Notes: generated by a model from the letters alone, not told the origin. A DNA stretch of 64,000 nt from an uncultured Gammaproteobacteria bacterium (GCA_964634875.1 CAZWKA010000003.1:16591-80590), one strand, 5' to 3'; shown: positions 5,574-63,681, counted from the stretch's first letter. Numbers and translations: made by a program.

Positions 5574-5611
5574 AAAAAAATATCCACCTTGAGTAAGGTG
5601 GATATTTTTTT
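5574..5611 (+). terminator. rho-independent terminator
   Basis: Stem ATATCCACCTT gagt AAGGTGGATAT followed by TTTTTTT. Confidence 0.8.
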
Positions 5612-5681
5612 GATGCTCCACTTCGTCCTATCGCTCATACGAACTAATTCGTAGGAATGATAGGGTGGGCGAAGTGGGGTG

Positions 5682-5714
5682 GGGGCTCCGCGCGTTTTTG
5701 GCGCGCGGAGCCCC
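5682..5714. repeat. perfect 13-bp GC-rich hairpin at the left edge of a high-GC islet
   Basis: GGGGCTCCGCGCG-tttttgg-CGCGCGGAGCCCC. It is preceded by a second long imperfect inverted repeat at 5617-5680. Confidence 0.7.
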
Positions 5715-5726
5715 TGGATTGGCTTT

Positions 5727-6380
5727 CTAGCGGCGCCAGAAAGCCAGAAACATGAGGGCGAAGGGTGCGGTGCAGACCGCGCCGAGGAACACGAACGCGA
5801 CGAACCGTGCTCTCGGCGAGATCCGGCTGACGCGCCGGATGGCCTGGGTGCGGCGCTCCTGCTCGGGGATCAGCGTATATGGCTGCGTGCCGTTGCTGAT
5901 GGGGTGCCGCTGCGTGCCCTGCTCTGTGATGGGGAACAGGCCGGTCTCAGCCCCACGCAGAACCGCGAGCTGCATGGTTCCCTCTCTGGACAGGTCGAGT
6001 GTCGGGATCTCTTTGGTGTCGTCCTCGTCGCCCATGCTCTGCACCTCTTTGGTGGCGGTGAGCTGGCGCTCGAACGCGGCCAGGCGCAGGTTCAGCAGGG
6101 TCTTGTCCGGATCCTCCTCCAGTTCGTCAAGGAGGGGGGTGAGAGCCTGAAGCGGGGTGACAGACGAGGCCGGCGGCGGCACCTCAAGCGGCCGAGCCAA
6201 CAGTGTCAGCGCGTAGGCCTCCTGGTGGAAGCCGCGCGGGTTCGTGGGCGTACGCTCATCCCCGAAGAGAGGGGGTGTGCGGCTCGAGGGCGGGCTGTCG
6301 GCAGAGCTCTGCGGCGGGCACGACGGGTCAATCAGGGGCTTGGCGAAAAGGGGCGGAGTCAGACTGCTGTGCGTCTTCAT
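5727..6380 (-). CDS. proline-rich protein with C-terminal transmembrane tail anchor, encoded in a high-GC islet
   Basis: ATG at 6380 has GAGGT 6 nt upstream. The C-terminal stretch FVAFVFLGAVCTAPFALMFLAFW is hydrophobic. GC is visibly far above the flanks, and the opposite strand also shows long ORFs, as expected for GC-rich DNA. Confidence 0.45.
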   Translation of the reverse strand: MKTHSSLTPPLFAKPLIDPSCPPQSSADSPPSSRTPPLFGDERTPTNPRGFHQEAYALTLLARPLEVPPPASSVTPLQALTPLLDELEEDPDKTLLNLRLAAFERQLTATKEVQSMGDEDDTKEIPTLDLSREGTMQLAVLRGAETGLFPITEQGTQRHPISNGTQPYTLIPEQERRTQAIRRVSRISPRARFVAFVFLGAVCTAPFALMFLAFWRR

Positions 6381-6420
6381 GACTGTTACCTCGCTGGGTG
6401 GCAAAAAAGGTCGGGCATTG

Positions 6421-6469
6421 TAGCGGTGAAACAGTCTGATTAATAGCTTTATTAGACTGTTTCACCGCT
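6421..6469. repeat. 17-18 bp inverted repeat (hairpin) at the right edge of the high-GC islet
   Basis: AGCGGTGAAACAGTCTGAT ... ATTAGACTGTTTCACCGCT with one mismatch. Confidence 0.7.
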
Positions 6470-6685
6470 AGAACACTTTTTTAAGGAACAAAAAAACCTG
6501 CGGCTTTCGCCTACAGGATGCTCCATCCTAGCACATTTTTAGGGTTTTGTCAAGGGTGTTTTGGGGTATTTTGGCTAATTTTAGCTATTTTTATAGTTTT
6601 AGAGTAGTTCAAATACCACTATTTACTGTTGCGGGCAAACATTTTTAAGCAGTATCTTTTCTTGAGGCAAGAAGTTATTAGTGGT

Positions 6686-11637: not shown

Positions 11638-12309
11638 TTATTCGTCTGCTGGTTCGTCGATCAGTGTGCTGGGTGCTCGGGGAACCAAATCTAGCTGAAG
11701 GTACTGTGGCGACGCGGGTTGTTTTGGTTCTGTTTCCCGCTTGAGAGCGAATTTCCACCCCAGCATGAGCGGTACCAAGTGCCATTCCCAAGGGTGCCCG
11801 TTCGCCAAGTTGAGCGGTGCCAGCATGGCTGCTTCGCTGCCGATGACAAAACCTTTGTACCGGAAACTGATGCCGCCGAGCAGCGGGCCGAGTTTGACTT
11901 CGGTCTGGCTCTGGTAGGGCTTTTCAATTTCTAGCACGATTCCAGGCAGGTGCAGTTCGAGCGACCAATGCTCGCTAAGGTGGATATCAAGCCCGCCGGT
12001 AAGGTGAATGTCGCCACCCGCCCGGTCGCCACCAATTGCCGCGTGCAGGCCGGCAACAATGCCAAAGTCGACGCTGCCCGCTTCGGCGAAAGGGAATTCA
12101 AACTCGAAACAGAGCGGGGTCATGAGTTGGAGGATAAATCCGCTTCCACCCTTGAGGCCAGTTGTGGCCGTGCGGGAACTATCGTATTTGGTGGGGGAGG
12201 CTACCGCTTGGCCGGAAAATATTGGGCCACCGCACCACAAGGCTGAGGGGGATTCGGCCCTCGCAACAATGCTCCAGGCAAGGAGCGTGACGATAACGAG
12301 GTAGCGCAC
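11638..12309 (-). CDS. secreted beta-strand-rich protein (porin/OmpW-like pattern)
   Basis: GTG start at 12309 with AAGGAGA 5 nt upstream. Signal peptide. Alternating hydrophobic pattern and a C-terminal aromatic residue. Confidence 0.4.
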   Translation of the reverse strand: MRYLVIVTLLAWSIVARAESPSALWCGGPIFSGQAVASPTKYDSSRTATTGLKGGSGFILQLMTPLCFEFEFPFAEAGSVDFGIVAGLHAAIGGDRAGGDIHLTGGLDIHLSEHWSLELHLPGIVLEIEKPYQSQTEVKLGPLLGGISFRYKGFVIGSEAAMLAPLNLANGHPWEWHLVPLMLGWKFALKRETEPKQPASPQYLQLDLVPRAPSTLIDEPADE

Positions 12310-12324
12310 AGGCTTCTCCTTAAA

Positions 12325-12337
12325 GCAACTTAGTTGC
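12325..12337. promoter_or_regulatory. palindrome GCAACTTAGTTGC (copy 2)
   Basis: Lies 16 bp upstream of the GTG start of the 11638..12309 gene on its promoter side. Extended motif GCAACTTAGTTGCACTTGTACCACAGG. Confidence 0.5.
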
Positions 12338-12368
12338 ACTTGTACCACAGGAATACCTAGTTGTCAAT

Positions 12369-16546: not shown

Positions 16547-16617
16547 GGGCGCGTCGTATAATGGTAGTACGTTGGTCTCCAAAACCAACTGCGTAGGTCC
16601 GATTCCTACCGCGCCTG
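16547..16617 (+). tRNA. tRNA-Trp (anticodon CCA)
   Basis: Anticodon stem TTGGT/ACCAA with loop CTCCAAA. D-arm GTAT..GTAC. T-arm GTAGG-TCCGATT-CCTAC. Resembles E. coli tRNA-Trp. Confidence 0.7.
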
Positions 16618-16622
16618 CTGAT

Positions 16623-16659
16623 AAAATCATAGCTTATTAATTGAGCTATGATTTTTTTG
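16623..16659 (+). terminator. rho-independent terminator
   Basis: AAAATCATAGCT-tattaatt-GAGCTATGATTTTTTT. Confidence 0.75.
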
Positions 16660-16734
16660 TTAGCGCAGGCTGTTAGAAAGGTTCATTCTATGATAAAATA
16701 AAATTTATTCGTTAATTATAGTATTACAGCCTCC

Positions 16735-17862
16735 ATGAAGATCGCTACCAATGTACATCGGGATGCCTTTGGGGGTATTACGGTCTCCAATCTTGCTCTT
16801 TTTGATTGGCTGAAAGATAAAGAAGATACGGTTGTAGGTATTGAAATCATTACGGCTCGACACCTGCTCGGGCCAGAAATATTTCGACACTATTTACCGT
16901 CTTTTTTTCATCACCACATTATTAACGGTATTGATATAATGCCTCGTTTTTCGTGGGAAAAATGGGGGAGCCCTCGAAAAAAATGGAGTATTCTCATAGA
17001 AAAAACAAAAGATATTTTACGCCAAGAGTCGCCGGATGTTGTTTTGATTAATGGAACGTATAGTACGCCTTGGATTTTGGCCCAGGCCGCACAAGAGTTG
17101 GGAATACCATTGGTTCTACGCTATGCCGGAGTGCTTCAAAAAGAAGTAAGTCATAAGAATTTTTTTATAAAAAGGCGGTTGCTAGCTTATGAAAGGTGGC
17201 TTGCTTCGTCCGCCACCAGCATTATTTTTCCTTCTCGTGTTTGCCAAAAAATTGTAGAAAAAGAAATAGTAGGACACGCTGTTCAGCGCAGCATGGTTAT
17301 TCCGAACCCTGCAGTCCCTCCAAAAAATTTGATGCGAAGAAAAGCGGGGCGTTTTACCATTTGTGCGATAGGGAGGTGGACATCAATCAAAAATTTTCAA
17401 GCATTTGTAGCTTTACACCACGAGCTTCTTTCTCAGCAATGGCAACATCGGGCGGTTATGGTAACTTCGTATTGGGATAAAGCATTTGATATTCCTGAAA
17501 CGATTGAAAAGAAAAAACAAATGAGTCAAGAAGATCTTTTCAAATTTTATCGCTCCATTGATCTTCTTGTTGTTCCTTCGCATTTTGAGACATTTTGCAA
17601 TGTTGCCGCAGAAGCGCTGGTGAGCGGAACGTCTGTTTTAGTATCAAAAAATGTAGGATTTTCTGAAATACTTATAAAGTGCGGATTAAAAAGAATGGTA
17701 ATTGACTCGTTTGATAATCCTGTAAAGGTTGCTCAAGCGGTACAGCGAATTGCCAAAACCAAACTTTCACAAAGCGAAATAAAAAAAGTTGCTTGTTTGC
17801 TCAACCCGCAAGGGATACACCAGAGCATGCTCGATGTTCTAAATAGCGTTATAAAAGTATAA
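16735..17862 (+). CDS. glycosyltransferase, GT4-like (GT-B fold)
   Basis: 375 aa. The C-terminal VVPSHFETFCNVAAEALVSG matches the EX7E motif region. Confidence 0.65.
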   Translation: MKIATNVHRDAFGGITVSNLALFDWLKDKEDTVVGIEIITARHLLGPEIFRHYLPSFFHHHIINGIDIMPRFSWEKWGSPRKKWSILIEKTKDILRQESPDVVLINGTYSTPWILAQAAQELGIPLVLRYAGVLQKEVSHKNFFIKRRLLAYERWLASSATSIIFPSRVCQKIVEKEIVGHAVQRSMVIPNPAVPPKNLMRRKAGRFTICAIGRWTSIKNFQAFVALHHELLSQQWQHRAVMVTSYWDKAFDIPETIEKKKQMSQEDLFKFYRSIDLLVVPSHFETFCNVAAEALVSGTSVLVSKNVGFSEILIKCGLKRMVIDSFDNPVKVAQAVQRIAKTKLSQSEIKKVACLLNPQGIHQSMLDVLNSVIKV

Positions 17863-17898
17863 CTAATAGTACCAAGGTCGTTCGTAGAGTGTTTTGTA

Positions 17899-17937
17899 AA
17901 AAAATACCCAAACTTTTTAAGTTTGGGTATTTTTTTG
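17899..17937. terminator. bidirectional terminator hairpin
   Basis: AAAATACCCAAAC-tttttaa-GTTTGGGTATTTTT. Confidence 0.75.
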
Positions 17938-18006
17938 TGGCCACGAGTGGGGTCGTTAGCGCGCACGCCTCGTGGATACGTGAGTGGGCAGGGGAAAGCG
18001 GTCGAG

Positions 18007-18435
18007 CTAGTTGAGGGGCTCGAGGGCGATCGTGACCCAGCGCTCGCTCTCGAGCTGCTGCTGCCGGGGCTGTCGTAGCCGCTCCTGGCTTAGCCGAAAC
18101 GAGGCACGCAGGAACGTCTCGAAGGCTGAGGCGCGTAGCGGGTTCATCTTGATGTAGTAGCACCGCCACCAGTTGGGGTTGGCTCGGTCGAAGGTGGTCG
18201 AACGGGTCGTCCGGCTCTTCTGGACCATGACGAGGATGCGACGCCCGGGACCCTTGTCGTCTTCCCGAACGAGCTCGCCTTCGTCGTCGATGCCGACGAA
18301 TTCCCTGAGGACGCGCAGAATGTCCTCGTGGAAGATGGAAACCTGGCCTGGCCACCGTGCCGCTTCTCCGTCGGAGAGCTGGTGGACCAGGATACCGGGC
18401 TCAGCCACCTCTTTACTCGCTGCTTCGATCATCAA
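18007..18435 (-). CDS. hypothetical protein encoded in a high-GC islet
   Basis: ATG at 18435 with AAGGAGG 5 nt upstream. 142 aa with no recognisable motif. GC visibly about 60% versus low-40s flanks. Confidence 0.4.
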   Translation of the reverse strand: MMIEAASKEVAEPGILVHQLSDGEAARWPGQVSIFHEDILRVLREFVGIDDEGELVREDDKGPGRRILVMVQKSRTTRSTTFDRANPNWWRCYYIKMNPLRASAFETFLRASFRLSQERLRQPRQQQLESERWVTIALEPLN

Positions 18436-18556
18436 GGCCTCCTTGGGGGTTGATAACGTGGCAGTTTATATAGCATGCCTGGTTTTGTCAATGATTAGAC
18501 CTGTCCAACAAAAAAAGACTATCGCAGAGACAGTCTTTTTGTTGGTTAAGACGTGG

Positions 18557-19783
18557 TTATTTTTTCTCAATATAATAGACGGCACCATTAAAATCGTCTG
18601 TGACAAAGAAGGATTTTTCATCGTTTACCAGTATACCGGCGGGGCGACCATGTACAGTTGTACCTTGCAAAAATCCGCTCAGAAAATCAGTTTGTTTTCC
18701 GTCTTGGGTAGTGGCAATTACGGTGTAACCAGCTTTAAGGGTTTTGTTGCCAGAGCCATGCAGGGCAACCAAGAGTTGGTTGTTGAAATAGGTAATACCC
18801 AAGGGTGCGCTGTGGGCGGGGAGTTTTACATCGGCTAGGGGGACGGTGCTGCAATCAAACGTTTTGCTCCATTCTTTACTAGTATCAGGTTCAATTGTGG
18901 TATTGGATTCGTAACAGTAGGGCCAGCCATAATTTTTGCCTTCCAACACTTCGTAAATAGTGTCGGGCGGTTGATTGTCGCCGAGGTGGTCAGCATTATT
19001 ATTGGTGGCAATCAGGGCGCTGCCCACAAACGTGAGGCCGACAGCGTTACGCAGGCCGCTGGCAAAGACTTTGCTATCGCTTCCATCCGGGTTCATGACC
19101 AGGATACTAGCCCGGCTTGGTTCGTCTTCTTTTTCTTCGCACGAGTTGCAAGAGCTACCAACCGAAACATAGAGCTTATTATTCTTCGCGACAACTGTTC
19201 GGGTAATATGCCAACCGCCTTGACCCAGCGTTCGGCCATAGGCGGGGAACGTGGCAATCGTTTCTGGTTTGGTTGTGGGGGCATTGTCACTGTTTGTGTA
19301 AGGATAGCGGATAAGTTTGTCGGTTAGGGCAATATAGAGCCAGGTTTTGCCGTCCGTGTCTGTATAAAAAGCCAGGCTGTGTGGGTTGCGGAGGTTTGAC
19401 ACGTAGGTGTGCGTGCCGGTGAATTTTTTGGTTTGTTCGTCAAATGCATCAAAAATATAGACTTTTCCGCGCCTCGTATCGCTAGCATTGTACATTTCGC
19501 CAAGGAAAAGGCGATTATCCGGGCTTTTAGCCATAAAGCGCAAGCGTTGGTAGCCTTCAGCAGCAACGCTAAGAGTGTGGTCATTAGGGTGGGTGAGTGA
19601 AAATGCCCGGCCATTTTTGAGTTTGACGGTAGTTGTCGTTGGTGCGGGTGAAGACACTGACGGTGGGGTGCTGGTTGAGAGAGGTGTTCCGTTATCGAGT
19701 GGTTCATCAAAGAATTGCCCGTTCGTGCAGCCTGCGCCAAGGAGTACTAAGATTAAGGGCAGGGCAAAAAGTATTTTTTTCAT
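18557..19783 (-). CDS. lipoprotein, PQQ-dependent sugar (glucose/sorbosone) dehydrogenase-like beta-propeller
   Basis: Lipobox LLGAGC. GWPYCYE and beta-propeller repeat patterns. Confidence 0.6.
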   Translation of the reverse strand: MKKILFALPLILVLLGAGCTNGQFFDEPLDNGTPLSTSTPPSVSSPAPTTTTVKLKNGRAFSLTHPNDHTLSVAAEGYQRLRFMAKSPDNRLFLGEMYNASDTRRGKVYIFDAFDEQTKKFTGTHTYVSNLRNPHSLAFYTDTDGKTWLYIALTDKLIRYPYTNSDNAPTTKPETIATFPAYGRTLGQGGWHITRTVVAKNNKLYVSVGSSCNSCEEKEDEPSRASILVMNPDGSDSKVFASGLRNAVGLTFVGSALIATNNNADHLGDNQPPDTIYEVLEGKNYGWPYCYESNTTIEPDTSKEWSKTFDCSTVPLADVKLPAHSAPLGITYFNNQLLVALHGSGNKTLKAGYTVIATTQDGKQTDFLSGFLQGTTVHGRPAGILVNDEKSFFVTDDFNGAVYYIEKK

Positions 19784-19954
19784 ACTAAACTCAGGTGGAT
19801 TAAAAATGACCTTAGTATCCTAGCATCATTTTTTGGAATGGGCTACTAAAGTTATTTTACGGCCAGGAGCTCTTTCTTTTTTTGACCTGTGGGTTGTTAG
19901 CTTGGAGTTTATGGTGTATACTCCCTATACTTAATTAACACTAATCGTACTCTT

Positions 19955-20710
19955 ATGGATGATCAAAGATCATTTTTCCAGCAGCTTTCCCCCAAAAGCG
20001 CGATGACTGTAGGCCTCCTGGGCGGCCTGATGACCTTGTGTACTATCGGCTTTTTTGTCCTGCTCGGGCTTAATCTCAAAAATGGTTTTTCGTCCGGTGG
20101 AAGCAAGCCGCTCGCTGTGCAGCCAGCCGCTCCACAAGGTGAAGTTCAGCCTCCTGCCCCTACCGGGCCGGTTGATGTTGGTGTCGGGCATTTCCCGATG
20201 AAAGGCAAGAGTGATGCCCCAGTAACGGTTATACAGTTTGCGGACTTCCGCTGCCCATTCTGTGAGCGTTTTTATAGTGATGCGGAGCAGGGGATGTTGA
20301 GGGATTATGTTGCGACGGGCAAGGTAAAATATTATTTCCGTAATTTTGCTTTTCTTGGTCCTGAGTCGACACTTGTTGCCGAAGCGTCAGAGTGCGCTAA
20401 TGACCAGGGCAAGTTTTGGGAATTCCATAATTGGATCTTTGAGAACCAGGCTCCAGAGTCTGACTCAACCTATTACTCCCAGGATAATTTGATTAAGTAT
20501 GGTGTGGGTGTTGGCCTCAACAAAGCAAAGTTCACCCAATGTTTGACTGACCGCACCTTCGCCGCAAAGGTGCAAGAAGATTTGAACGAAGGTCAGGCAG
20601 CCGGGGTTAATGGTACGCCGACCACGTTTATTGACGGTGTTGCGCTTGTTGGTGCACAGCCTTACGCCGCCCTACAGCAAGCGATTGATCAGGCGTTAGC
20701 CAATAAATAA
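19955..20710 (+). CDS. membrane-anchored DsbA-like thiol:disulfide oxidoreductase
   Basis: N-terminal TM helix. CPFC active site within a thioredoxin-like context. Confidence 0.75.
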   Translation: MDDQRSFFQQLSPKSAMTVGLLGGLMTLCTIGFFVLLGLNLKNGFSSGGSKPLAVQPAAPQGEVQPPAPTGPVDVGVGHFPMKGKSDAPVTVIQFADFRCPFCERFYSDAEQGMLRDYVATGKVKYYFRNFAFLGPESTLVAEASECANDQGKFWEFHNWIFENQAPESDSTYYSQDNLIKYGVGVGLNKAKFTQCLTDRTFAAKVQEDLNEGQAAGVNGTPTTFIDGVALVGAQPYAALQQAIDQALANK

Positions 20711-20834
20711 AAATAATTTTAAATAACTCTGATTGTTATAAATCGGAGTTATTTTTTTAGCCGAAGCAGCTCTTTACATTTTTGAGTTTCAAGCGTACGC
20801 TTACACATAATAATTAATTTTTAATTACATAGGT

Positions 20835-21422
20835 ATGAAAAAAGCAATTTTTGCTGTAGTTCTGGGTATTGTAGTTATGGGCGCTGGATGCAGTGCTGCA
20901 AGTAACCCTGACCAGTCGAATGTTTCGGGAAATGGAGAAACTAAAACATACGAAAATTCTTTGTATAGTTTTCAATTTAAATACCCCGCCAATGCTCAAG
21001 AATCTGTTTTGACTCTCGGAAATTTAGATGAAAAATTAGTACAGTTTGAGTTACCTGTTGACCAGTACCCCTCAACCAATCTGGCTGAAGCTCAATTCAT
21101 TGTTACAGCCCTTCCCCTCGATGAATTGGACAGCTGTCTGTCTTTGGCTTTGCCAGATGAGTCGGTAAAATTTGATACTGCCAACAAAATAGTTATCAAT
21201 GGTCAGGATTTCTATTCTGCCACGGTTATTGATCAAGACAGCGCTGATTTGTATGAATCTCGAATTTACAGGGCGTTTAATGACTATGTCTGTTTTGAGT
21301 TTGAAGAAGCAATTCACACTACGAATGTAGAAGAAGGTGTAACTGAAGTCGACAAATCATCTGTCTGGCAGTCGCTCGAGGAAATGCTCCAGTCGGTTAC
21401 TTTCGACCGTCCTAACGTTTAA
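20835..21422 (+). CDS. lipoprotein of unknown function
   Basis: Signal peptide with lipobox VMGAGC. Acidic. Confidence 0.5.
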   Translation: MKKAIFAVVLGIVVMGAGCSAASNPDQSNVSGNGETKTYENSLYSFQFKYPANAQESVLTLGNLDEKLVQFELPVDQYPSTNLAEAQFIVTALPLDELDSCLSLALPDESVKFDTANKIVINGQDFYSATVIDQDSADLYESRIYRAFNDYVCFEFEEAIHTTNVEEGVTEVDKSSVWQSLEEMLQSVTFDRPNV

Positions 21423-21452
21423 TTTTAAACGTAACACGCCAGCTTAAAATAT

Positions 21453-21716
21453 ATGGCCACTTCTTGTGCACATATTTCCGAAATTAAAGCTGTTACCCCG
21501 ATAACACCGGACGGCTGCACAGACTGTCTTACGACTGGTGACGAGTGGGTGGCGCTCCGTCTCTGTCTGTCGTGCGGAAATGTAGGTTGCTGTGATTCTT
21601 CCAAAAATAAACATGCGACCAAACATTTCGAGGCAACCGGCCACCCGATCATGCAGGCCTACCAAGAGGGCAAAGAATGGAAATGGTGTTATGTGGATAA
21701 GATATATGTACTATAA
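21453..21716 (+). CDS. zf-UBP-type zinc-finger protein
   Basis: The CAH...C..C....W..L..C..CG..GCC....H...H pattern matches UBP-type zinc fingers. Confidence 0.55.
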   Translation: MATSCAHISEIKAVTPITPDGCTDCLTTGDEWVALRLCLSCGNVGCCDSSKNKHATKHFEATGHPIMQAYQEGKEWKWCYVDKIYVL

Positions 21717-21850
21717 AAAAATAACCCCAGGGTTTCCTGGGGTTATTTTATAATGAAGACTGTCCTCACCCTGCCTGCATATGTACATATTCGGGCACGG
21801 TGAGATAAAGGGGACAGTCTTGAGTCTGTGGGGTTGGGGGGTCGTAGCGG

Positions 21851-22285
21851 TTAGCTGAATCGGGAAAGGTCAGTCGGGAACTCGGTCTCGATCACCAGCT
21901 GTAGCGCTGAAACAGAAACCGGTTTCACTAGTGTGCCTTTGATGCCTAGGTTTCGAAGATCCAGACGTTCATGTCCGGTCGCCAGATAGGCGGGAACGTG
22001 GGCGAGAGTGCTGTCAGCCCGCAGTTGCTCGACCAGCCAGAATCCATCGTGCACGGGCATAGAAGCGTCAACGAAGACGAGTTTAAGTCGTTCGCCGACT
22101 GCTCTCGCCTCGTCCAGGCCATCAGCCGCATTCGTGGCGCTGATGATGTGGTAACCTGCGCACAGGCCACTAACGAGCATCGAGAAGAGCTCGGTTGTGT
22201 CAGGGCAGTCATCAACAACCAGGATGACAGGTCGGCCTTCCGGCCTGCTGGATGTGGGGAGTGCTTCTGGAGTATGGGTCAGCAT
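21851..22285 (-). CDS. stand-alone response-regulator receiver (CheY-like) domain protein, high-GC islet
   Basis: ATG at 22285 with GGAGA upstream. VILVVDD...LVFVDASMP...LATG...K motifs. The ORF may extend to 22345. Confidence 0.55.
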   Translation of the reverse strand: MLTHTPEALPTSSRPEGRPVILVVDDCPDTTELFSMLVSGLCAGYHIISATNAADGLDEARAVGERLKLVFVDASMPVHDGFWLVEQLRADSTLAHVPAYLATGHERLDLRNLGIKGTLVKPVSVSALQLVIETEFPTDLSRFS

Positions 22286-22386
22286 GAGAATTCTCCGCGT
22301 GAAGTGGAATAGAGGTACCCTGTGCCTAAAACACTCTTTTGTCAAGCCCAGACCCCATTTCTTGAAAATAACGGGTGGCCAGGGTA

Positions 22387-22399
22387 GTTGCTAAGCAAC
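22387..22399. promoter_or_regulatory. 13-bp perfect palindrome GTTGCTAAGCAAC upstream of the NUDIX gene
   Basis: Seen directly. Same half-sites (GTTGC/GCAAC) as the triple repeat at 11.1-12.4 kb, but in inverted order. Confidence 0.35.
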
Positions 22400-22432
22400 A
22401 AATGATTTTATCTTGTACTAGGTTATATACGT

Positions 22433-22870
22433 ATGGAAATTACCCGCCATTTTACCGCCACCACATTTATTGTGTATAACAAAAAAGTACTTCTACATTT
22501 GCATAAGAAGTTGGGTATTTGGCTTCCGCCGGGCGGACATCTTGATCGTGACGAGCTTCCAGAGGTGGCAGCGCTGCGCGAAGTTAAAGAAGAAACAGGG
22601 CTTGATGTCGAGTTGTACCAGCCTCCGAACAGTTTTACTTTTAAAAGCGTGGGTGTGCTGAAGCAGCCCTTTTGTATTTTGCTCGAAGACATCAATCCGT
22701 TCCATCAACATATTGATTATAATTACCTGGCTCGGGCAACGACCGCTGAGGTAAGTGAAGAAGGAACGCAAAAGCATGGTATGCGCTGGCTCAGCCTTGA
22801 AGAAATAAATGTGCTTGATGCGCCGGATGATGTAAAAAATTTAGCAGCCGAGGCATTGGCGCTTTTGTAA
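22433..22870 (+). CDS. NUDIX hydrolase
   Basis: Nudix box GGHLDRDELPEVAALREVKEETGL. Confidence 0.8.
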   Translation: MEITRHFTATTFIVYNKKVLLHLHKKLGIWLPPGGHLDRDELPEVAALREVKEETGLDVELYQPPNSFTFKSVGVLKQPFCILLEDINPFHQHIDYNYLARATTAEVSEEGTQKHGMRWLSLEEINVLDAPDDVKNLAAEALALL

Positions 22871-22875
22871 AAAGT

Positions 22876-23523
22876 ATGGAGAAACGTAAGCCCTTATTGT
22901 CTGCGCGGACAACCTACAGTATTGGCGCTGCGCTCATCAGTATTGGACTCATCATCAAAGGTGTCTATTTTTTGTCTAGCGCTTTTCAAGGGAATGAATT
23001 GTCGGTTCCGCTACCAGTAGTAACATCGACGTTACTGAGTTTTGACATTGCGTCCTCAACAGCCCAGATTCCCGTTGCGACTTCGACGCTTTCGTACCGT
23101 TTAATAATACCTAAGATCGGCGTTGATATGCCGATTGTGATTGACGAAAAAAATGAAACACGCGGCCTCGCCCAGGGAGCTTGGCAAATTCCAGGAACCG
23201 CTGTCCCTGGTGAAGAAGGAGGATATGGCAATATTGTGCTCAGCGCCCATCGGTATTTGTACACGTCTGGTCCGCGGACTTTTTTTAATCTCGACAAGCT
23301 TGAGGCGGGGGATGAAATTAGTATTGAGTGGCTTGGAAAAACCTATGTGTATGTAGTTGATGGTTCTGCGGTCGTGCCGCCAACTGCAGTTGAAATTTTG
23401 AACCCTAGTGCAGAGCCTCGTCTCACGCTCTTCACATGTACACCTGTTTTTACTACCAAAAATCGGTTGGTTGTAACTGCGTATCTTAGTACGCCGCATT
23501 CTTCCACAACCACCCCTAAGTAA
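22876..23523 (+). CDS. sortase (class A/E-like transpeptidase)
   Basis: N-terminal TM helix. Catalytic His (LSAHR), TLxTC motif (LTLFTCTP) and Arg. Confidence 0.8.
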   Translation: MEKRKPLLSARTTYSIGAALISIGLIIKGVYFLSSAFQGNELSVPLPVVTSTLLSFDIASSTAQIPVATSTLSYRLIIPKIGVDMPIVIDEKNETRGLAQGAWQIPGTAVPGEEGGYGNIVLSAHRYLYTSGPRTFFNLDKLEAGDEISIEWLGKTYVYVVDGSAVVPPTAVEILNPSAEPRLTLFTCTPVFTTKNRLVVTAYLSTPHSSTTTPK

Positions 23524-23586
23524 GACTTGACACAAAAATTGACTTTATGATGGGAGGGGAGTAGGAATAAGGAAGTAGTTACACTA

Positions 23587-24936
23587 TTGTTAGGTATGAA
23601 ACAGGATTTTTTTACAAATATTTGTTTACGTTTACTAGGGGTGAGCCTGTTAATTCTAGGTACTTTATTTTTTTGTGTTAATACCCGCGCTGCAGCCTCC
23701 CTTGTTCCGATTGAAGCTGATGATTTTGGTTTTTTGACTGTGTACAGTAGTTCAACCGTAACTGTTGCTGACGATGCTGCGACAGTTTTATATATAGTTG
23801 ATGGCGCCACTGTGGTCACGACTACACTGAGTATTAATGGTCAGGTAGATTTATATTTAACGCCCGGTGAGTATCAGTTGAGCCAGCAACCAAGTGATGG
23901 TTACACGCCAGTTTTTTTTGTTGATAGTGAAGATCCCGAAACTCCGCAGTGTGATACGTCCGGACGCATACTCGTCCCTGCTGAGCAGGGAGGGGTTCGT
24001 TTGGTCTGTAATATTTTACAAAGCATCTACGTTCCTACAGAAGAGGAAGTTCCGCCTTTTGTCCCAACCACCAGCACACTCCATATCAACCAGCTCGTTA
24101 TCAACGACAATGGTGACAACAAAACAGTTATAGATTTTCCTTTTGATGTGGCGATTGACGGGGTAACAACGACTTACCCTGGGGCGAGTACAACAACAAT
24201 TGTAAACCTCTCTGCAACGAGCACGTATAGTGTTGATCTTGCTGTGCCTGGCAGTTATGCTCGAACGCTTAGCGGGGATTGTTCGGGTACGAGTTCCGAG
24301 GTCGGCACTCTTGTAACGTGTACTATTGCTCTCGATGATCAGGAATTATTTTTGACCGATGTGCGGGCGGAAGCGGTTGATACGACATCAGTAAAAGTTA
24401 TGTGGACAACGAGTCATGCTGCTACGAGCCGGGTGATTTATGACGTGGTGAATCACGATGCCACGACTACGCCTCCATTGTATGGTTATGCTTTTACGAG
24501 TAATGAGCAGGGCGAGTTTGTTACAAATCACGAAGTGATTATCGCCGGTCTTGCTCCAGATACGCTTTATTATTTTCGCGCCGTCTCGCACGGCTCGCCA
24601 GAAGTAGTTAGTAACGAGGTGTCTGTTAAAACTATCGCCGCGACTGGCGGTGGACAGAATTTTAGCACGGGTGCGGGCGGGGGAGGGGTTGTTGCCCCGC
24701 CGCCAACAGCACCCACACCTGCTCCGGCACCAGTCCCAAGCGCACCGCAAGCAGTTTTAGGTGAAAAGATAGAAGTCACAGCTCCGCTGCCGAGCCCTAC
24801 TCCACAAGCCGTACTCGGTTTTCAAACTTTACCAGTAACTGGTGGGCGCGCGCCTTCACGTTTACCTGATGTAGCGGTGGACTGTATGTTATTAGGTGGC
24901 CTGCTCGTACTTCGAACCAGGCTCCTCGCTGAGTAG
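23587..24936 (+). CDS. LPXTG-anchored cell-surface protein (sortase substrate)
   Basis: Signal peptide. LPVTGG followed by a hydrophobic helix and an RTRLLAE tail at the C-terminus. Contains an FN3-like segment. Confidence 0.75.
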   Translation: MLGMKQDFFTNICLRLLGVSLLILGTLFFCVNTRAAASLVPIEADDFGFLTVYSSSTVTVADDAATVLYIVDGATVVTTTLSINGQVDLYLTPGEYQLSQQPSDGYTPVFFVDSEDPETPQCDTSGRILVPAEQGGVRLVCNILQSIYVPTEEEVPPFVPTTSTLHINQLVINDNGDNKTVIDFPFDVAIDGVTTTYPGASTTTIVNLSATSTYSVDLAVPGSYARTLSGDCSGTSSEVGTLVTCTIALDDQELFLTDVRAEAVDTTSVKVMWTTSHAATSRVIYDVVNHDATTTPPLYGYAFTSNEQGEFVTNHEVIIAGLAPDTLYYFRAVSHGSPEVVSNEVSVKTIAATGGGQNFSTGAGGGGVVAPPPTAPTPAPAPVPSAPQAVLGEKIEVTAPLPSPTPQAVLGFQTLPVTGGRAPSRLPDVAVDCMLLGGLLVLRTRLLAE

Positions 24937-25083
24937 TAACAGTATTTTTAATGTTAGAACACATAACCCTTCCTTCGGAAGGTTAAGTGTTTTTTGCTCA
25001 CCGGTTTTTAAAATTGATAAAAGGGCGGTTTGTGCGTGCAGTAGTGTGTTTTATAAACATCTAAAAAGGTATATACTAAGGCC

Positions 25084-26361
25084 ATGAAGCGTGCGCTTAA
25101 AAAATATTTTATCCCCCACGCGGAGAATAAGTACCACCCGCATTTTTTGCATGCCAAACGTGCGTTGGCATATTCGACTTTTTTTATTTGGATTAAAGCA
25201 TTTTTAGTTGGCTTAGTTTTGGCTATTCCGCTGCCTGCTTTTGTTGCGCCCGATGTCTTATCGGGCGAGCAGGCTCGTCTGGTGCAGCTGACAAATACGC
25301 TGCGAGCACGAGAAAACCGCGAACCACTGGTTGTTCGACCTCTGCTCAACCGTTCGAGCGCGCTCAAGGCGGATGATATGGCGGTGCAGCAGTATTTTAG
25401 CCACAACGGTCCCGACGACCATAATCTGAAATTTTTTCTTAAGGCTGCCGGATATGGTTACCGCACAGCCGGAGAAAATTTAGCCATGGGTTTTTTCAGC
25501 GCCGATGAAGTGCTTTCGGCGTGGGTAAAAAGTCCGACGCATTATAAAAATTTAATTGACAGTGAATACCTGGAGCTTGGCACAAGCATGGTGGCTGGTT
25601 TGTATAATAATATTCCCACTGCTTATGCCGTAGCGCATTTTGGTACACCGCCGATTACGGCTCCAAGCGCTGCCTCGTCAACTCCGGTAGTGCCTGCTAT
25701 CGCTGAGCCTGTAGTCACTGATCCGGTCATCTCAGTACCTCCAAAAAGCGTCCCAGCCCTCCGGGTGCTAAGCCAGAAGAGTGGTGTTGCTGTAGTAAAA
25801 ACTCCGGCTCCTGTAGAAATCATTCCGCCTCGATTGGCCTATGACGCTGATCGTTCGCAAGTGCTCTGGAAAGAAGCTGAAGGCGGAGTGCTGGTTCAGA
25901 TCCAGGCATATATCCAAGGTTCCGTAAAAACTGCTCAGGTAGAGATTGCTGGCCATACTGTAACTCTTGAGCCAGAGCTAAGTAGGAGCGAACAAGATAT
26001 GAGGCGCTACGCTGGATCACAGGTTTTACCGCTTAGTAAGTCGGAGTTGTTCCGAGTGGTGGTGCCGCCAACTCTTTCCGTAATTGGTGAGGGTGGGGAA
26101 ATAATTACCGGTTCTGTGGCCTGGCATGCTCCACCGATTATTACACCAAGCTCGTGGCAGCGCTATACTGTTGCCCGCCGGAGCATTCCTTTGGTTGCAA
26201 GTATTGTCGATTTTTCAAACAGCGTCTATATTGGTTTTTTGGCTTTATTCTTAGCGGCCTTTGTTGCTTTGGTTGTTGTGGAGGCTCGCAAACAACACCC
26301 TCATGTTATTGTCCAAACCCTGGGGGTGATTGCGTTGCTCCTGGTGCTTATCATAACCTAG
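25084..26361 (+). CDS. CAP/SCP (PR-1-like) domain protein with N- and C-terminal TM segments
   Basis: CAP-domain motifs (GENLA..., HYKNLID...). C-terminal hydrophobic anchor. Confidence 0.65.
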   Translation: MKRALKKYFIPHAENKYHPHFLHAKRALAYSTFFIWIKAFLVGLVLAIPLPAFVAPDVLSGEQARLVQLTNTLRARENREPLVVRPLLNRSSALKADDMAVQQYFSHNGPDDHNLKFFLKAAGYGYRTAGENLAMGFFSADEVLSAWVKSPTHYKNLIDSEYLELGTSMVAGLYNNIPTAYAVAHFGTPPITAPSAASSTPVVPAIAEPVVTDPVISVPPKSVPALRVLSQKSGVAVVKTPAPVEIIPPRLAYDADRSQVLWKEAEGGVLVQIQAYIQGSVKTAQVEIAGHTVTLEPELSRSEQDMRRYAGSQVLPLSKSELFRVVVPPTLSVIGEGGEIITGSVAWHAPPIITPSSWQRYTVARRSIPLVASIVDFSNSVYIGFLALFLAAFVALVVVEARKQHPHVIVQTLGVIALLLVLIIT

Positions 26362-26386
26362 TCCACACCCCTGTAGCGTCGAGGGG

Positions 26387-26415
26387 TTGACAAAAATGCT
26401 AAAAAGTGCTACTAT
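26387..26415 (+). promoter_or_regulatory. sigma70-type promoter TTGACA-N17-TACTAT for the cold-shock gene
   Basis: Seen directly. Leaves a 5'UTR of about 95 nt, typical for csp genes. Confidence 0.6.
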
Positions 26416-26507
26416 ACATTCACCTAAGCAGTCTTCACGTAGAGATGCCGTCGAGTTTCTACCTAAGACAAACTGTCTTAAGTCTTAATCCACCCATCTT
26501 TATCACT

Positions 26508-26705
26508 ATGAAAGGTGTTATCAAACGCTTAACGGATAAAGGATTCGGCTTTATTACTCCAGACGGAGAAGTAAAGGACGTTTTCTTCCACATGAGCGAC
26601 CTCAACGGCGTGCAATTCAACGATTTGCAAGTCGGCCAGGCTGTAACTTTCGAAGTTGCCCAGTCTGACAAAGGCCCTAAGGCCGTCAACGTTACTTTGG
26701 CGTAA
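26508..26705 (+). CDS. cold-shock protein (CspA family)
   Basis: 65 aa. MKGVIKRLTDKGFGFITP...VFFHMSDL carries the RNP1/RNP2 motifs. Confidence 0.85.
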   Translation: MKGVIKRLTDKGFGFITPDGEVKDVFFHMSDLNGVQFNDLQVGQAVTFEVAQSDKGPKAVNVTLA

Positions 26706-26808
26706 TAGCCCTAGTTACTACAAAAACCGCTCTAGCAATAGAGTGGTTTTTGTTTTTGCCAAGTTTTAGAGAGAGTGCTATGCTTTTAATAGTTTGTTTT
26801 TAAAAATT

Positions 26809-27321
26809 ATGTATATGGTGCACAAAGCAGAAGGCGCTGGTTTTGAACCCCCATCAACCGGCGATGCGGGCGGTGCTAGTCAAAAAGCCGAAAATACTTC
26901 AGGTAAAGAAGTTAGTTTTGCTTTAAAAATGAAAATACAAATGATGATAGTTGAGAAGCTTCAGGACCTTAAAATAGCCGCCCCTAAGCGTGCAGGAGGG
27001 GACGAGTCGGTTTCTTTGAAAGAAGACTCTAAAAAGCTGAATAAAGAAGTGGCTGCCCTAGAAGAGTATTTAGCTGAGTATAGTCTTATTTTTAATGCTT
27101 TATTGGATCAGCCCAAAATTAAAGACCTGGCTTTGACCGATCCCCAGGCCGCAGCAGACGCGATTTTTGTCCGTCTCAAAAAACTCAAACCTGTCTTTGA
27201 CGAACATTTTCCAAGAGACGTACGCCCGCTGGTCGTTGATAAACCTTCGGCTGAAGATCTGCGGTGGCTACACTTTTTGACGAAGGAAACAGATAGTGTT
27301 GATACTGCCGCGTTCAATTAA
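26809..27321 (+). CDS. hypothetical protein
   Basis: ORF with a charged N-terminus. Start uncertain: the first in-frame ATGs are 26809 and 26815, and the ORF-track start 26794 is TTG. Confidence 0.35.
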   Translation: MYMVHKAEGAGFEPPSTGDAGGASQKAENTSGKEVSFALKMKIQMMIVEKLQDLKIAAPKRAGGDESVSLKEDSKKLNKEVAALEEYLAEYSLIFNALLDQPKIKDLALTDPQAAADAIFVRLKKLKPVFDEHFPRDVRPLVVDKPSAEDLRWLHFLTKETDSVDTAAFN

Positions 27322-27339
27322 TGTTTTAAAATTTTGTGT

Positions 27340-27897
27340 ATGAATATGCCGCTTAAAATTGTCGGGATTGTTGGAAGTTTACGTACAGGTTCATATAATA
27401 GGGCTCTTTTGAATGCTGCGCGTGAATTGGTGCCAGAAGGGGTTGAGCTTGAGATTTTGGAAATTAGCACCTTTCCATTATTCAACCAGGATATGGAACA
27501 AAATTTGCCGCCTGATGTGGTGCAATTCAAAGAAAAAATTAAAGCCGCGGACGCTGTGCTTTTTGTAACTCCGGAATATAACTACTCTATCCCGGGTGTT
27601 TTGAAAAATGCCATTGACTGGGGTTCACGTCCCTATGGCCAGAATAGTTTTGACGACAAGCCGGTGGCTATAATGGGTGCGTCGATGGGGATGCTCGGGA
27701 GCGCTCGCGCTCAATACCAGCTCCGCCAGACGTTTGTCTTTTTGAATATGCACGCTGTTAACCGACCCGAGGTGATGGTGCCGAGCGTGCAGGATAAGGT
27801 TGATCAAAACGGTGTTGTTACTGACGCACATACTCGGGACAAGATACGAGAATTGCTCGAAGCGCTGGTTGGCCATACTCGTCGTTTGAACCACTAG
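27340..27897 (+). CDS. NAD(P)H-dependent FMN reductase (flavodoxin-like fold)
   Basis: LKIVGIVGSLRTGSYNRALL ... PEYNYSIPGVLKNAIDW. Confidence 0.8.
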   Translation: MNMPLKIVGIVGSLRTGSYNRALLNAARELVPEGVELEILEISTFPLFNQDMEQNLPPDVVQFKEKIKAADAVLFVTPEYNYSIPGVLKNAIDWGSRPYGQNSFDDKPVAIMGASMGMLGSARAQYQLRQTFVFLNMHAVNRPEVMVPSVQDKVDQNGVVTDAHTRDKIRELLEALVGHTRRLNH

Positions 27898-28012
27898 CCT
27901 GTCAATAAAAAAATTCATTTTCAGTCTCTTGTTTGATTGAAAGAGGGTTTTTAGGTATACTTATCTTGCTTGCGGATCCATTTTTTTAAGGGTACGGATG
28001 GGATCAGTCAGA

Positions 28013-28041
28013 TTGACAAAACCCTTAAAAAGGGATAGAAT
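28013..28041 (+). promoter_or_regulatory. near-consensus sigma70 promoter TTGACA-N17-TAGAAT
   Basis: Seen directly. The -35 element sits in the loop of a 9-bp hairpin (TTTAAGGG...CCCTTAAA). Confidence 0.6.
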
Positions 28042-28069
28042 ATCTAATCAATAGTTATTCAAACGTGGT

Positions 28070-28792
28070 ATGAAACGAGTTTTGCCTTTGGCTACGGTTG
28101 ACCCGTCAACCAAAAACCGGCCCACTTATTACAAGGTCATGGAAGTAGTTGGCATGACTATTTTCGCGATCTACATGGTTCTTTTGGCTAGTTTGCTGAT
28201 TCGTTCAGCAGGCGTTTTTGATTTTACCCTGATGGGCTTGGCGCTTATTTTAATCCTGCCTATCGCAGGGTATATTTTGGCTGATTTTTTTTCGGGTTTT
28301 GTTCATTTTTTAGGCGACACATTTGGTACAGAAGATATTCCCTTTTTCGGGCCTCATTTTATCCGGCCGTTCCGCGCTCATCATATTGATGAAAAAGAAA
28401 TTACTCGGCATGGGTTTATTGAAGTAAATGGTACAAATTGTATTATTTCACTGGTAGTTATTGTTCCGGCTTTTTACTGGCTGCCCATCATGAGTTCGTT
28501 TACCTATTTTTTGATCGGTGAAGTGATTTGGTTCATGATTCTTTCGATTTTTTTGACTAACCAAATCCATAAATGGGCTCACCAAGATAAACCACCCGCT
28601 TTCATCCGTTTTTTGCAGCGGTACCGCCTTATCCTGTCGCCTGAACATCATCAGGTGCACCATACTGCGCCGTTTGCAACGTATTACTGCATCACCTCTG
28701 GCTGGTTGAACGCACTACTCGCTAAACTTCATTTTTTTGACGGTATTGAGCGTATTTTCAAGTCAAAAAATTCCCAAAATAAAATTGTTTAA
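28070..28792 (+). CDS. membrane lipid desaturase of the CarF/TMEM189(PEDS1)-like family
   Basis: Multi-TM protein with His boxes HIDEKEITRHG, NQIHKWAHQ and HHQVHH. Confidence 0.55.
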   Translation: MKRVLPLATVDPSTKNRPTYYKVMEVVGMTIFAIYMVLLASLLIRSAGVFDFTLMGLALILILPIAGYILADFFSGFVHFLGDTFGTEDIPFFGPHFIRPFRAHHIDEKEITRHGFIEVNGTNCIISLVVIVPAFYWLPIMSSFTYFLIGEVIWFMILSIFLTNQIHKWAHQDKPPAFIRFLQRYRLILSPEHHQVHHTAPFATYYCITSGWLNALLAKLHFFDGIERIFKSKNSQNKIV

Positions 28793-32845: not shown

Positions 32846-32973
32846 AATGGTAATAAAAATATCCCGATCGTGTCGGGGTATTTTTTTATTTCCTTGAGTG
32901 TGTCCACAAATTTTTATGAACACAATGGGGGAGGAGAATGGCGGCTGGGTTAAGCGGCTCGTTCTCCAGGTGG

Positions 32974-33465
32974 CTAGGTTAGGCCGAGAAGTCCGGCAAG
33001 GATATAGAGACCAAGTGCGACAGCGACACCGAGTAGCACAGCGTACAGCCTTGTCTGGCTTGGCATATGTTCAAACGGTGGCAGAATAACCTCTTCGGTG
33101 TTGTCTGCCGGATCGCGGGAGAGGGGCGGGATTGTCGGCGCCGTCGCCCGCTTGGTGAGCACTGTAGGTCGCATTGTCCGGGGAGGATAGATGGGTACCG
33201 GCACTGCCCCTAGTGGCCTCGTGTGCCTTTGGACTTCATAGACAGGGTCAGCATCGATGTTAGTCTGCCCAACTTCTACTTGAGGTGCTGGCGGGGGCGT
33301 AGGCAGGCCGAGGTAGTTGGCTTCGAGCACCGTGGGTTGCACCGGCAGTGCTGCGGGTGGTGGCTGGGGTGTCTCGCCAGGCCTGCCCAAGATGCGTTCG
33401 AGCAGGGTGGGCTGGTTACGCTTTGCGACCGGGGTAACTGGGGCTCGTGGTCTCAGTTTTGCCAT
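32974..33465 (-). CDS. proline-rich protein with C-terminal TM tail anchor, high-GC islet (paralog-like of 5727..6380)
   Basis: ATG at 33465 with GAGGA upstream. C-terminal LYAVLLGVAVALGLYILAGLLGLT. Pro-rich throughout. Shares the ..QRH..P..G.. segment and overall architecture with the 5.7-kb islet protein. Confidence 0.45.
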   Translation of the reverse strand: MAKLRPRAPVTPVAKRNQPTLLERILGRPGETPQPPPAALPVQPTVLEANYLGLPTPPPAPQVEVGQTNIDADPVYEVQRHTRPLGAVPVPIYPPRTMRPTVLTKRATAPTIPPLSRDPADNTEEVILPPFEHMPSQTRLYAVLLGVAVALGLYILAGLLGLT

Positions 33466-60022: not shown

Positions 60023-60094
60023 GAGGTCTCTTCACTAAAATACCCGGGTTTGTATACCCGGGTATTTTATTAGGTTTGGAATATTTTCTTTCTA

Positions 60095-62740: not shown

Positions 62741-63681
62741 TCAGTAGTCCCGCAGGTCGCGGGTTTCGCGTCGCCAGATGCGGCGCTGGTCGCTCCGGTG
62801 CTGCCCGCTCGTGAGGCAGCCATGAAGCAGGTTGCGTCTGCTCCAGACGAAGCTCCGGAACTCTTGCTTCGTCATCTTCATGGACCGACGGAGCTTGATG
62901 ATGTTTCGGTGCCGGACTTCGTGGCCGCGGTTGTAGGACAGGTTGATGTGCTTCTGCTCTTCATCCTTCGAAGACGAATCAGAAGCGATCTTCTTGTCCC
63001 ACTTCGCTTCGAGGAGCTCGAGAGGGGTCAGCTCATCGAGCGGGTGCTTGAGGTACCGCTTCTCGAGCCACCGGACTTCGCGAGTCGATCCCTCTGCCTC
63101 CTTGCGGTGGCTGAGGTAGGCTCGCTGTTCCGCCTTGGTGAGGAGCTCGTGCTCCTTGTCCGTGATGCGCCCGGCGCACTTCAGCTGGTCGGCCTTGACC
63201 ATGGTGAGTCCGCCGATCGTTGGCCAGTCACCCCCTTGGATCTTGGCGAGTAGATCCTGGACTTCGGCGAAGGCTTCGTCGAGCACCTCGGCCCAGCGTG
63301 CCGCTTCCTCGGCCTGACGCTTGCGACTCGCTTCCTCGGCCGCTCGCTTGCGGTCTGCCTGTGCCGCCGTGATCGCGGGGTAGGCGGCTGTGGCTTGTTC
63401 GAGCCAGGTTGTAGTGGGCTGGTAGCTGTCGAGCACGCGGTTGATGAACTCCATGATCTCGTGGTCCACGTACTCGAGCTGCTTGAGCTCCTCGATCTTC
63501 CACTTCAGCTGCTGTGCTTCACGCCCGAGCCGGCGGCGCTCCAGTTCCCCGGAGCGCTCCAGTTCCATGCGCTGTTCAGCGGCCAGGCGCGCCTGTTCAG
63601 CATGCTTCGACCGCATGGTGTAGCTGCGGCCGCGGCTGAAGTAGGGTTGAGGTTCCATGACGATCTCGATCTTGCGTCCCA
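62741..63681 (-). CDS. coiled-coil-rich hypothetical protein encoded in a high-GC islet
   Basis: ATG at 63681 with GGAGAGA upstream. About 60% GC by eye. The long Arg/Glu/Ala-rich helical region suggests a coiled-coil. No catalytic motif recognised. Confidence 0.4.

Follow-up and report, generated by a model that had tools for sequence, protein, structure and literature searches.

The GC-rich segment that we call islet B lies between two convergent genes, a GT4 glycosyltransferase gene (16735-17862, plus strand) and a gene for a GSDH/TrAA12-type lipoprotein (18557-19783, minus strand; GSDH below). Throughout, the window is the whole stretch of DNA analysed, 64,000 nucleotides long. A plateau of high GC content extends from 17940 to 18450: 200-nt steps across 17900-18400 have values of 0.585-0.645 against 0.35-0.45 on either side, which confirms the compositional anomaly of the original prediction. 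The 500-nt bin 18001-18500 has a GC content of 0.608, the mean of the window being 0.467. The stretch 16589-28432 of the window recurs with 100% identity in a Logan assembly made independently from SRR12762304, so that the junctions of the islet are real and do not result from a chimeric assembly. Also confirmed were the AAGGAGG Shine-Dalgarno (SD) sequence, the lone minus-strand protein gene that follows it and the two hairpins between which that gene had been placed. The features are listed in Table 1.

Table 1. Features of the small-gene unit and of the adjoining variable slot, in window coordinates.
Feature	Position	Strand	Remarks
GSDH gene intrinsic terminator hairpin	18505..18545	-	inverted repeats I8 and I9; fold -21.4 kcal/mol, z = -4.6
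Sigma-70-type promoter of the small gene, TTGACA-17 nt-TAAACT	18463..18491	-	best promoter match of the region, 10/12
Shine-Dalgarno sequence AAGGAGG	18438..18444	-	5 nt upstream of the ATG; AAGGAGG in L004, GGAGG in L005
CDS, 141 aa and TAG	18007..18432	-	lineage-restricted, fast-evolving small soluble protein; GC3 0.81; 17 Arg vs 4 Lys
Conserved 3'-UTR block	17940..17985	-	CCACGAGGCGT (17965-17975) and ACTCGTGGC (17940-17948) invariant in three species
Bidirectional intrinsic terminator, 18-bp stem	17898..17936	.	flanked by an A7 and a T7 run; common to the small gene and the convergent GT4 gene
Variable slot between tRNA-Trp and the small-gene unit	16547..17936		window: GT4; L004: LigB; L005: adh_short and LigB; L002: 293-aa gene, LigB and PP2C-like gene

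Counted from a TTG codon, the minus-strand ORF (18007..18435) encodes 142 aa. An ATG is located one codon inside (18430-18432) and, as it lies 5 nt from AAGGAGG, a protein of 141 aa is the likelier product; public gene calls likewise give 141 aa. The GC content at the three codon positions (0.65/0.43/0.81) is characteristic of coding frames in DNA rich in GC, a pattern absent from two competing ORFs of 168 and 221 aa in the same segment. When the orthologs from three species described below are considered, the frame of the islet gene alone is free of stops in all of them, and each of the remaining five frames contains 1-6 stops. This frame stays open in 1.3-4.3% of mononucleotide shuffles per species, which corresponds to a joint chance of about 1e-5 over the three species. 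Codon periodicity and maintenance of the ORF thus show the islet ORF to be a real gene, one that would be translated. Its product is not a housekeeping protein and its codon usage is not normal, the two properties that had been named as speaking against the original prediction: GC is 0.63 versus 0.47 for the genome, and GC3 is 0.81 versus 0.28-0.64 for the backbone genes.

The protein homologs of GSDH carry Patescibacteria, Nomurabacteria or Parcubacteria annotation, and the host of the window is a Patescibacteria (CPR) MAG. The nearest relatives, with 72-73% identity, come from two NCBI MAGs and one JGI population. The loci compared with the window were L004 (GCA_964510495.1, the same as L007), L005 (JGI contig Ga0490029_000604) and L002 (GCA_964540825.1, the same as L008, of which L003 is a short Logan copy). 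Both GCA_964540825.1 and GCA_964510495.1 are titled "uncultured Gammaproteobacteria bacterium" yet match the Patescibacteria-type locus in gene order and with 63-92% protein identity; the label is probably wrong. The conserved gene order comprises sortase, NUDIX, response regulator, zf-UBP, a 195-aa protein, DsbA and GSDH and, further on, tRNA-Trp, DUF1189, L33 and an ABC transporter. Directly 3' of GSDH and on the same strand, L004 carries an ORF of 130 aa (P0125) and L005 one of 135 aa (P0126). The L005 ORF starts at ATG 3305 and its 135 aa are confirmed by the Logan call P0126, a 104-aa call existing as well. The ORFs of L004 and L005 have a GC content of 0.60-0.65 and a GC3 of 0.74-0.84.

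The three species share one architecture: GSDH terminator, TTGACA-17 nt-TA(A/C)ACT, (AA)GGAGG, ATG and ORF, stop codon, a spacer of 15-24 nt, the 3' block and a terminator. The promoter reads TTGACA-17-TAAACT in L004 and TTGACA-17-TACACT in L005, and TTGACAAAA occurs six times in the 64-kb window versus 1.6 times expected. The GSDH terminator separates the lipoprotein gene from the small-gene unit, and comparable hairpins are found 3' of GSDH in L002, L004 and L005. At the other end of the unit, a perfect 18-bp inverted repeat (17898-17915 with 17919-17936), flanked by A7 and T7, forms a stable stem-loop with an A-run and a T-run between convergent genes, as expected of a bidirectional terminator. 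It is conserved in L004 and L005, with two compensatory pairs in the stem, and its layout in the orthologous units is AAAAAATACCC-loop-GGGTATTTTTT; part of this conservation reflects a genome-wide AAAAUACCC...GGGUAUUUU terminator consensus. The terminators at 17898-17936, 60036-60069, 32858-32885 and 5575-5610 have AAAAUA(C/U)CC...GG(G/A)UAUUUU in common, which is apparently a bidirectional terminator consensus typical of the lineage.

L002 differs: here the next gene directly follows the GSDH terminator and the unit is missing, the other proteins being 83-98% identical to those of L004. Taking into account that the window, L005 and the L004/L002 pair represent three roughly equidistant lineages, the simplest history is that of an ancestral unit with one loss in L002, and its absence there fits a loss better than a gain. 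The absence from this close relative of L004 is clean, and the unit is dispensable. Among the more distant relatives L006 and L009-L011, whose GSDH is 57-58% identical, no GC-rich ORF is located downstream of GSDH, and a scan of metagenomes with a GSDH profile yielded, among the matches listed, distant relatives only. Nine contigs of the L005 type are nearly invariant, eight being identical and one showing a single mismatch. One JGI contig (L173, 876-998) carries the L005-type ORF and 3'-UTR block and then diverges, inside the terminator stem, into another neighbourhood with a methyltransferase gene; either the strain is rearranged at the terminator or the assembly is chimeric. In L005 itself (3185-3327) the conserved stop codon of GSDH is lost in an A9 run, and gene calling extends the protein by 40 aa, across the terminator of GSDH and the small-gene promoter. 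This extension is either a homopolymer error or genuine.

Islet B had been proposed to be inserted between the GT4 and lipoprotein genes. The comparison contradicts this: units with the same promoter, SD, 3'-UTR block and terminator sit 3' of GSDH in the deep lineages L004 and L005, and the islet is missing from the locus just in L002, the close relative of L004. The GT4 and lipoprotein genes, whose adjacency in relatives had been suggested as a check, are never adjacent there, and the reason is the opposite of the one expected, since the GT4 gene is missing from all the relatives. It is the slot between tRNA-Trp and the small-gene unit which varies in content among the window, L002, L004 and L005; tRNA-Trp lies beside DUF1189 in all four genomes. 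The GT4 gene, found in the window genome only, is AT-rich, with the lowest GC3 of the region (0.34). No att-like repeat and no repeat of the tRNA end flank it, and islet B is accompanied by no integrase, transposase or other mobility gene and by no meaningful flanking repeat.

The three small proteins align colinearly with 21-25% identity (alignment A3). Residues R83, W89, A103, R131 and W132 are invariant, and a C-terminal motif [DE]RW-x-h-x-I is shared. Shuffling of local alignments gave p values of 0.0005-0.0045 for the window versus L005, 0.006-0.017 for L004 versus L005 and 0.08-0.19 for the window versus L004 (these homology statistics, as well as the covariation reported below, come from three species only). 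Although the similarity between the window and L004 proteins is not significant when taken alone, the alignments together with synteny and the shared flanks led us to treat the three proteins as orthologs. A word-indexed search of 5.8 billion proteins, both with the single sequence and with a three-sequence profile, recovered the family itself only, and an exhaustive HMMER search over 1.84 billion cluster representatives found no homolog beyond the three species. Two weak HMMER matches, P0122 and P0123, were discarded; both are internally repetitive and rejected by the family profile (hhalign probability 0.3% and 2%). The islet protein has no match in Pfam (E <= 0.1), PHROGs or PADLOC, tblastn against phage and plasmid collections gave none either, and a fold search of BFVD returned nothing. 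That the protein has no motif by which it could be placed, as initially noted, is thus borne out by Pfam, PHROGs, PADLOC, PDB and homology searches.

With the three-sequence alignment as input, AlphaFold modelled the window protein with pLDDT 56 and pTM 0.53 and the L004 ortholog with pLDDT 73 and pTM 0.62. Both models, of low to moderate confidence, have a beta-alpha-beta-beta-alpha-beta topology. The protein shows neither a signal peptide nor a hydrophobic segment. The halves of the protein do not keep their net charge from one ortholog to another, which counts against a conserved nucleic-acid-binding surface. Three other assignments were considered and rejected. A resemblance to the ribbon-helix-helix fold (CopG/Arc/MetJ) was suspected by eye; the sole PDB profile match, CopG 6xrw_B, has an E value of 0.57, and the modelled topology speaks against the fold, one long helix being present where it needs two. 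As for a target of a diversity-generating retroelement, the ORF is not repeated within the 64-kb window and no reverse-transcriptase-like gene appears in the neighbourhood tables. A toxin-antitoxin or defence module is not indicated either, the gene having its own promoter and terminator, no partner gene and no PADLOC match. The three proteins make up a new family, that of an atypical GC-rich ORFan with a conserved position and a conserved 3' UTR.

The small protein has diverged nearly as fast as is possible for a sequence, and much faster than its surroundings, the regulatory flanks of the gene being still recognisable. Between the window and its relatives, the neighbouring proteins are 63-92% identical and the small protein 22-25%. 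When the window is compared with L004, pS is 0.70 for the small gene and 0.69-0.81 for the neighbours, which is saturated, and pN amounts to 0.60 for the small gene versus 0.05-0.21 for the neighbours. Simple pairwise DNA identities are uninformative here, because gapped alignment of GC-rich sequence inflates the values. The GC1/2/3 profile is 0.61/0.49/0.84 in L004 and, in L005, 0.62/0.43/0.77 for the 104-aa call and 0.61/0.47/0.74 for the full 135-aa ORF. R/(R+K) is 0.77-0.88 in the small-gene proteins versus 0.27-0.46 in the backbone. We applied a rough two-state relaxation, assuming that each lineage has undergone at least one substitution per synonymous site and that GC3 of the backbone tends to an equilibrium of about 0.45. 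By this rough calculation, a foreign GC3 of 0.95 would fall to about 0.55-0.6; the values observed are 0.74-0.84. As they lie well above the decayed expectation, we infer that GC-richness is actively maintained and would not be a decaying foreign signature; either a local process biased towards GC or selection acting on the mRNA would maintain it. Biased gene conversion, conflict-linked repair and selection on mRNA are candidates for this force, and we cannot tell which of them acts.

In the three species the 3' UTR contains invariant runs of 11, 9, 11 and 11 nt, whereas the CDS part of the same alignment (A2) shows isolated conserved columns. The block has the layout ACGTAyCCACGAGGCGT ... ACTCGTGGC. 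Two pairings are possible within it. Hairpin S1 (17979-17984 with 17962-17967) has compensatory G-C to C-G swaps in two of its six pairs; helix S2 (17969-17975 with 17941-17947) consists of seven invariant pairs, in which CCACGAG of the S1 loop meets the downstream CTCGTGG. S1 and S2 may form either an H-type pseudoknot, with plausible loops of 3, 1 and 14-18 nt, or two mutually exclusive hairpins. Folded without the terminator, the block is no stabler than shuffled sequences (z = -0.1 to -1.7), and it could instead be a site that acts at the DNA level.

The 3'-UTR motif is unique to this locus, both in the window and among the loci compared. With a covariance model (R1), the true matches are the orthologous units of the window, L004 and L005 and the partial copy in L173; the other loci match by the common terminator consensus alone, and the S1/S2 block is thus unique to the small-gene unit. 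Rfam returned tRNAs and terminator look-alikes only, and no family for the block. The motif has five matches in IMG/VR, all of them unrelated chance palindromes. CACGAG, the core of the invariant arms, was also considered as a restriction-type site and dismissed: with 31 occurrences versus 19 expected, the window shows no avoidance of it.

GC3 exceeds 0.8 in three ORFs of the window (5727-6380, 18007-18432 and 62741-63682), the backbone range being 0.28-0.64. A nearby stand-alone response regulator gene (21851-22285, minus strand; L002 3915-4367; L004 3115-3573) shows the same syndrome as the small gene; it has a GC3 of 0.6-0.7 and is syntenic in all relatives. Its product is 29-30% identical to its positional orthologs. 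Between L002 and L004, dS of this gene is 0.78 (neighbours 0.5-2.0) and dN is 0.40 (neighbours 0.015-0.11); an ordinary dS combined with a raised dN points to fast change in place and not to replacement by a distant allele. Five GC-rich genes (5727, 18007, 21851, 32974 and 62741) are all encoded on the minus strand, on which crude calls place about 26 of 66 genes (p about 0.01). The cumulative GC skew rises steadily, which makes the minus strand the lagging one and the five genes head-on to replication. Four of the six TTGACAAAA promoters in the window belong to these five genes.

We read islet B as a transcription unit with a single gene, complete in itself and inherited vertically within a small Patescibacteria clade, and not as a recent insertion, and give this reading a probability of roughly 0.6. 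In this unit, its own promoter and the SD precede an ORF of 141 codons, which is followed by some 50 nt of conserved 3' UTR and then by the bidirectional terminator. Its product would be soluble, non-essential and about 15 kDa in size, with a predicted ferredoxin/RRM-like beta-alpha-beta-beta-alpha-beta core; it is presumably under relaxed or diversifying selection, as is typical of genes involved in conflict or in interaction with a partner. In cis, the conserved 3' UTR may act on the stability or termination of the transcript, or it may be the source of a 3'-UTR-derived small RNA, and a GC-favouring force would act locally. Our best guess from the sequences is a dispensable, fast-diverging accessory protein made from an mRNA whose 3' UTR is probably functional.

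Several other explanations have to be weighed against vertical inheritance of a protein gene. The islet might be a recent horizontal acquisition that came from a GC-rich donor and landed between the GT4 and lipoprotein genes. Its composition in a 0.47-GC genome would suit such an origin, as would a protein that is Arg-rich and Lys-poor like those of high-GC organisms, the lack of homologs in CPR or among other proteins and the presence of tRNA-Trp 1.3 kb away. However, orthologous units occupy the same locus in species with saturated synonymous divergence, promoter, SD and terminator are of the host type, no integrase, att repeat or other mobility signal and no match in phage or plasmid collections was found, and the variable element is the GT4 gene and not the small gene. 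We regard a recent insertion as very improbable and, indeed, as essentially excluded. An ancient transfer before the divergence of the clade is possible as the origin of the gene; it would not explain its present composition. Even less credible is a spurious ORF, the GC-rich DNA around it being non-coding or specifying a large non-coding RNA. Chance ORFs do run long in GC-rich DNA, as the 168- and 221-aa ORFs in other frames illustrate, but codon periodicity and a frame kept open specifically for this ORF in three species are hard to reconcile with chance, and so are the conserved SD and ATG and a colinear protein alignment that can be folded. A different possibility is that RNA is the functional product and the ORF a weakly constrained carrier; the 3' UTR would then give rise to a small RNA or act in cis as an element for stability or regulation. 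Small RNAs that derive from a 3' UTR and share the terminator of the mRNA are known from enterobacteria (CpxQ and SroC type), and in the islet unit, too, invariant blocks adjoin the terminator in three species. The contrast between these runs and the scattered conservation of the CDS, the compensatory changes in S1 and in the terminator, the fit of S1/S2 to H-type pseudoknot geometry and a pN of the ORF near saturation argue for this possibility. Against it stand the single frame kept open in three species (joint chance about 1e-5), the conserved spacing between SD and ATG, strong codon periodicity and a consistently predicted fold; moreover, the block is thermodynamically undistinctive, Rfam has no family for it beyond terminator look-alikes, and the conservation of the terminator is in part a genome-wide consensus. 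An RNA as the functional product therefore seems unlikely to us.

The composition and rate of the small gene might also come from locally accelerated, GC-biased evolution of strongly promoted single genes on the lagging strand, with no selected function needed. The classical signature of gBGC is that GC3 and dN are both raised and that residues shift towards Gly, Ala, Arg and Pro. Candidate processes would be biased gene conversion at a recombination hot spot and repair linked to head-on conflicts between replication and transcription; PMC4450053 sets out a gBGC hypothesis for bacteria. The response regulator, whose dN is raised in place at an ordinary dS, agrees with such a process, and so does the orientation of the GC-rich genes, all five of which lie opposite to the leading strand defined by GC skew (p about 0.01), four of them with TTGACAAAA promoters. 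On the other hand, the effects of bacterial gBGC on GC3 reported in the literature are said to be small, other minus-strand genes (GSDH and the 41-53 kb block) have a normal GC content, the nine L005-type contigs are nearly invariant, and the sample consists of five genes from one window. We consider it doubtful that such a process, free of selected function, accounts for the gene.

In several respects the islet gene resembles the ORFans described in an E. coli population study (PMC3514957) and in a review (PMC12315717): it is short, restricted to few species, fast-evolving, variably present and without a domain. According to the former source, ORFans are typically AT-richer than their own genome. 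The islet gene, in contrast, is 16 points GC-richer than its genome, keeps a GC3 of 0.8 across saturated synonymous divergence and possesses a strong promoter and a 3' UTR that are both conserved. With GC islets acquired by horizontal transfer it shares a sharp, terminator-bounded GC discontinuity and a variable region near a tRNA gene; unlike them, it is found at the same locus in diverged relatives, with host-type signals and no mobility functions, and it is the neighbouring GT4 gene that varies. The transcript is similar to those that give rise to CpxQ/SroC-type small RNAs in that conservation is much stronger at its 3' end than in the coding part and in that this end is formed by the intrinsic terminator of the gene itself. 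It differs in showing no sign of processing, of an internal promoter or of a target, and in coming from another phylum, in which no chaperone is known.

Callers of genomic islands based on composition would tag the small gene as foreign, and the comparative data show this tag to be wrong here. If the pattern of a high GC3 that is maintained, a protein that diverges extremely and a position that stays fixed were general in these reduced genomes, it would offer a tractable case for studying what creates and maintains compositional outliers in bacteria, would flag candidate interaction or conflict genes in organisms with a partner-dependent lifestyle, and would call for caution before GC islets in CPR MAGs are put down to contamination or to horizontal transfer. 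Very tentatively, and with low expectation, we suggest that islet B represents a class of single-gene units in this Patescibacteria lineage, which lie on the lagging strand behind strong promoters, keep a GC3 of about 0.6-0.84 and fixed positions, and encode proteins that evolve several-fold faster than their neighbours. The response regulator gene (21851-22285) and the orphans 5727-6380, 32974-33465 and 62741-63682 would be further candidate members. Such a class, if true, would imply a local GC-biased engine (gene conversion or conflict-linked repair) or selection on GC-rich mRNAs, and would constitute a bacterial counterpart of gBGC-driven accelerated gene evolution, the reverse of the usual AT-rich ORFan.

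Some of these units show features of their own. The orphan unit at 5575-6553 (minus strand; GC3 0.84) contains the 217-aa ORF 5727-6380, which has no Pfam or PADLOC match. It is provided with a promoter (TTGACA-17-TAGGAT, 6525-6553), a bidirectional terminator (5575-5610) and a structured 3' UTR of about 115 nt, and its leader of about 140 nt includes two hairpin-plus-T-run structures (at about 6490-6520 and 6418-6473) that resemble an attenuator or riboswitch. A second orphan unit, at 62741-63939 (minus strand; GC3 0.81), encodes 313 aa (62741-63682) behind the promoter TTGACA-17-TATACT (63911-63939). Its leader, of about 230 nt, carries an SD-led five-codon uORF, MSFQR (63777-63794), and a 27-nt tandem repeat is located within the CDS (63302-63352). 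Beside FUR, finally, the window (11638-12348, minus strand) and L004 (14969-15682) each have a gene of 236/237 aa with a GC3 of 0.64-0.66; the two counterparts give no mutual BLASTP match at E <= 1e-3 and are a candidate for the class of GC-rich, fast-evolving genes.
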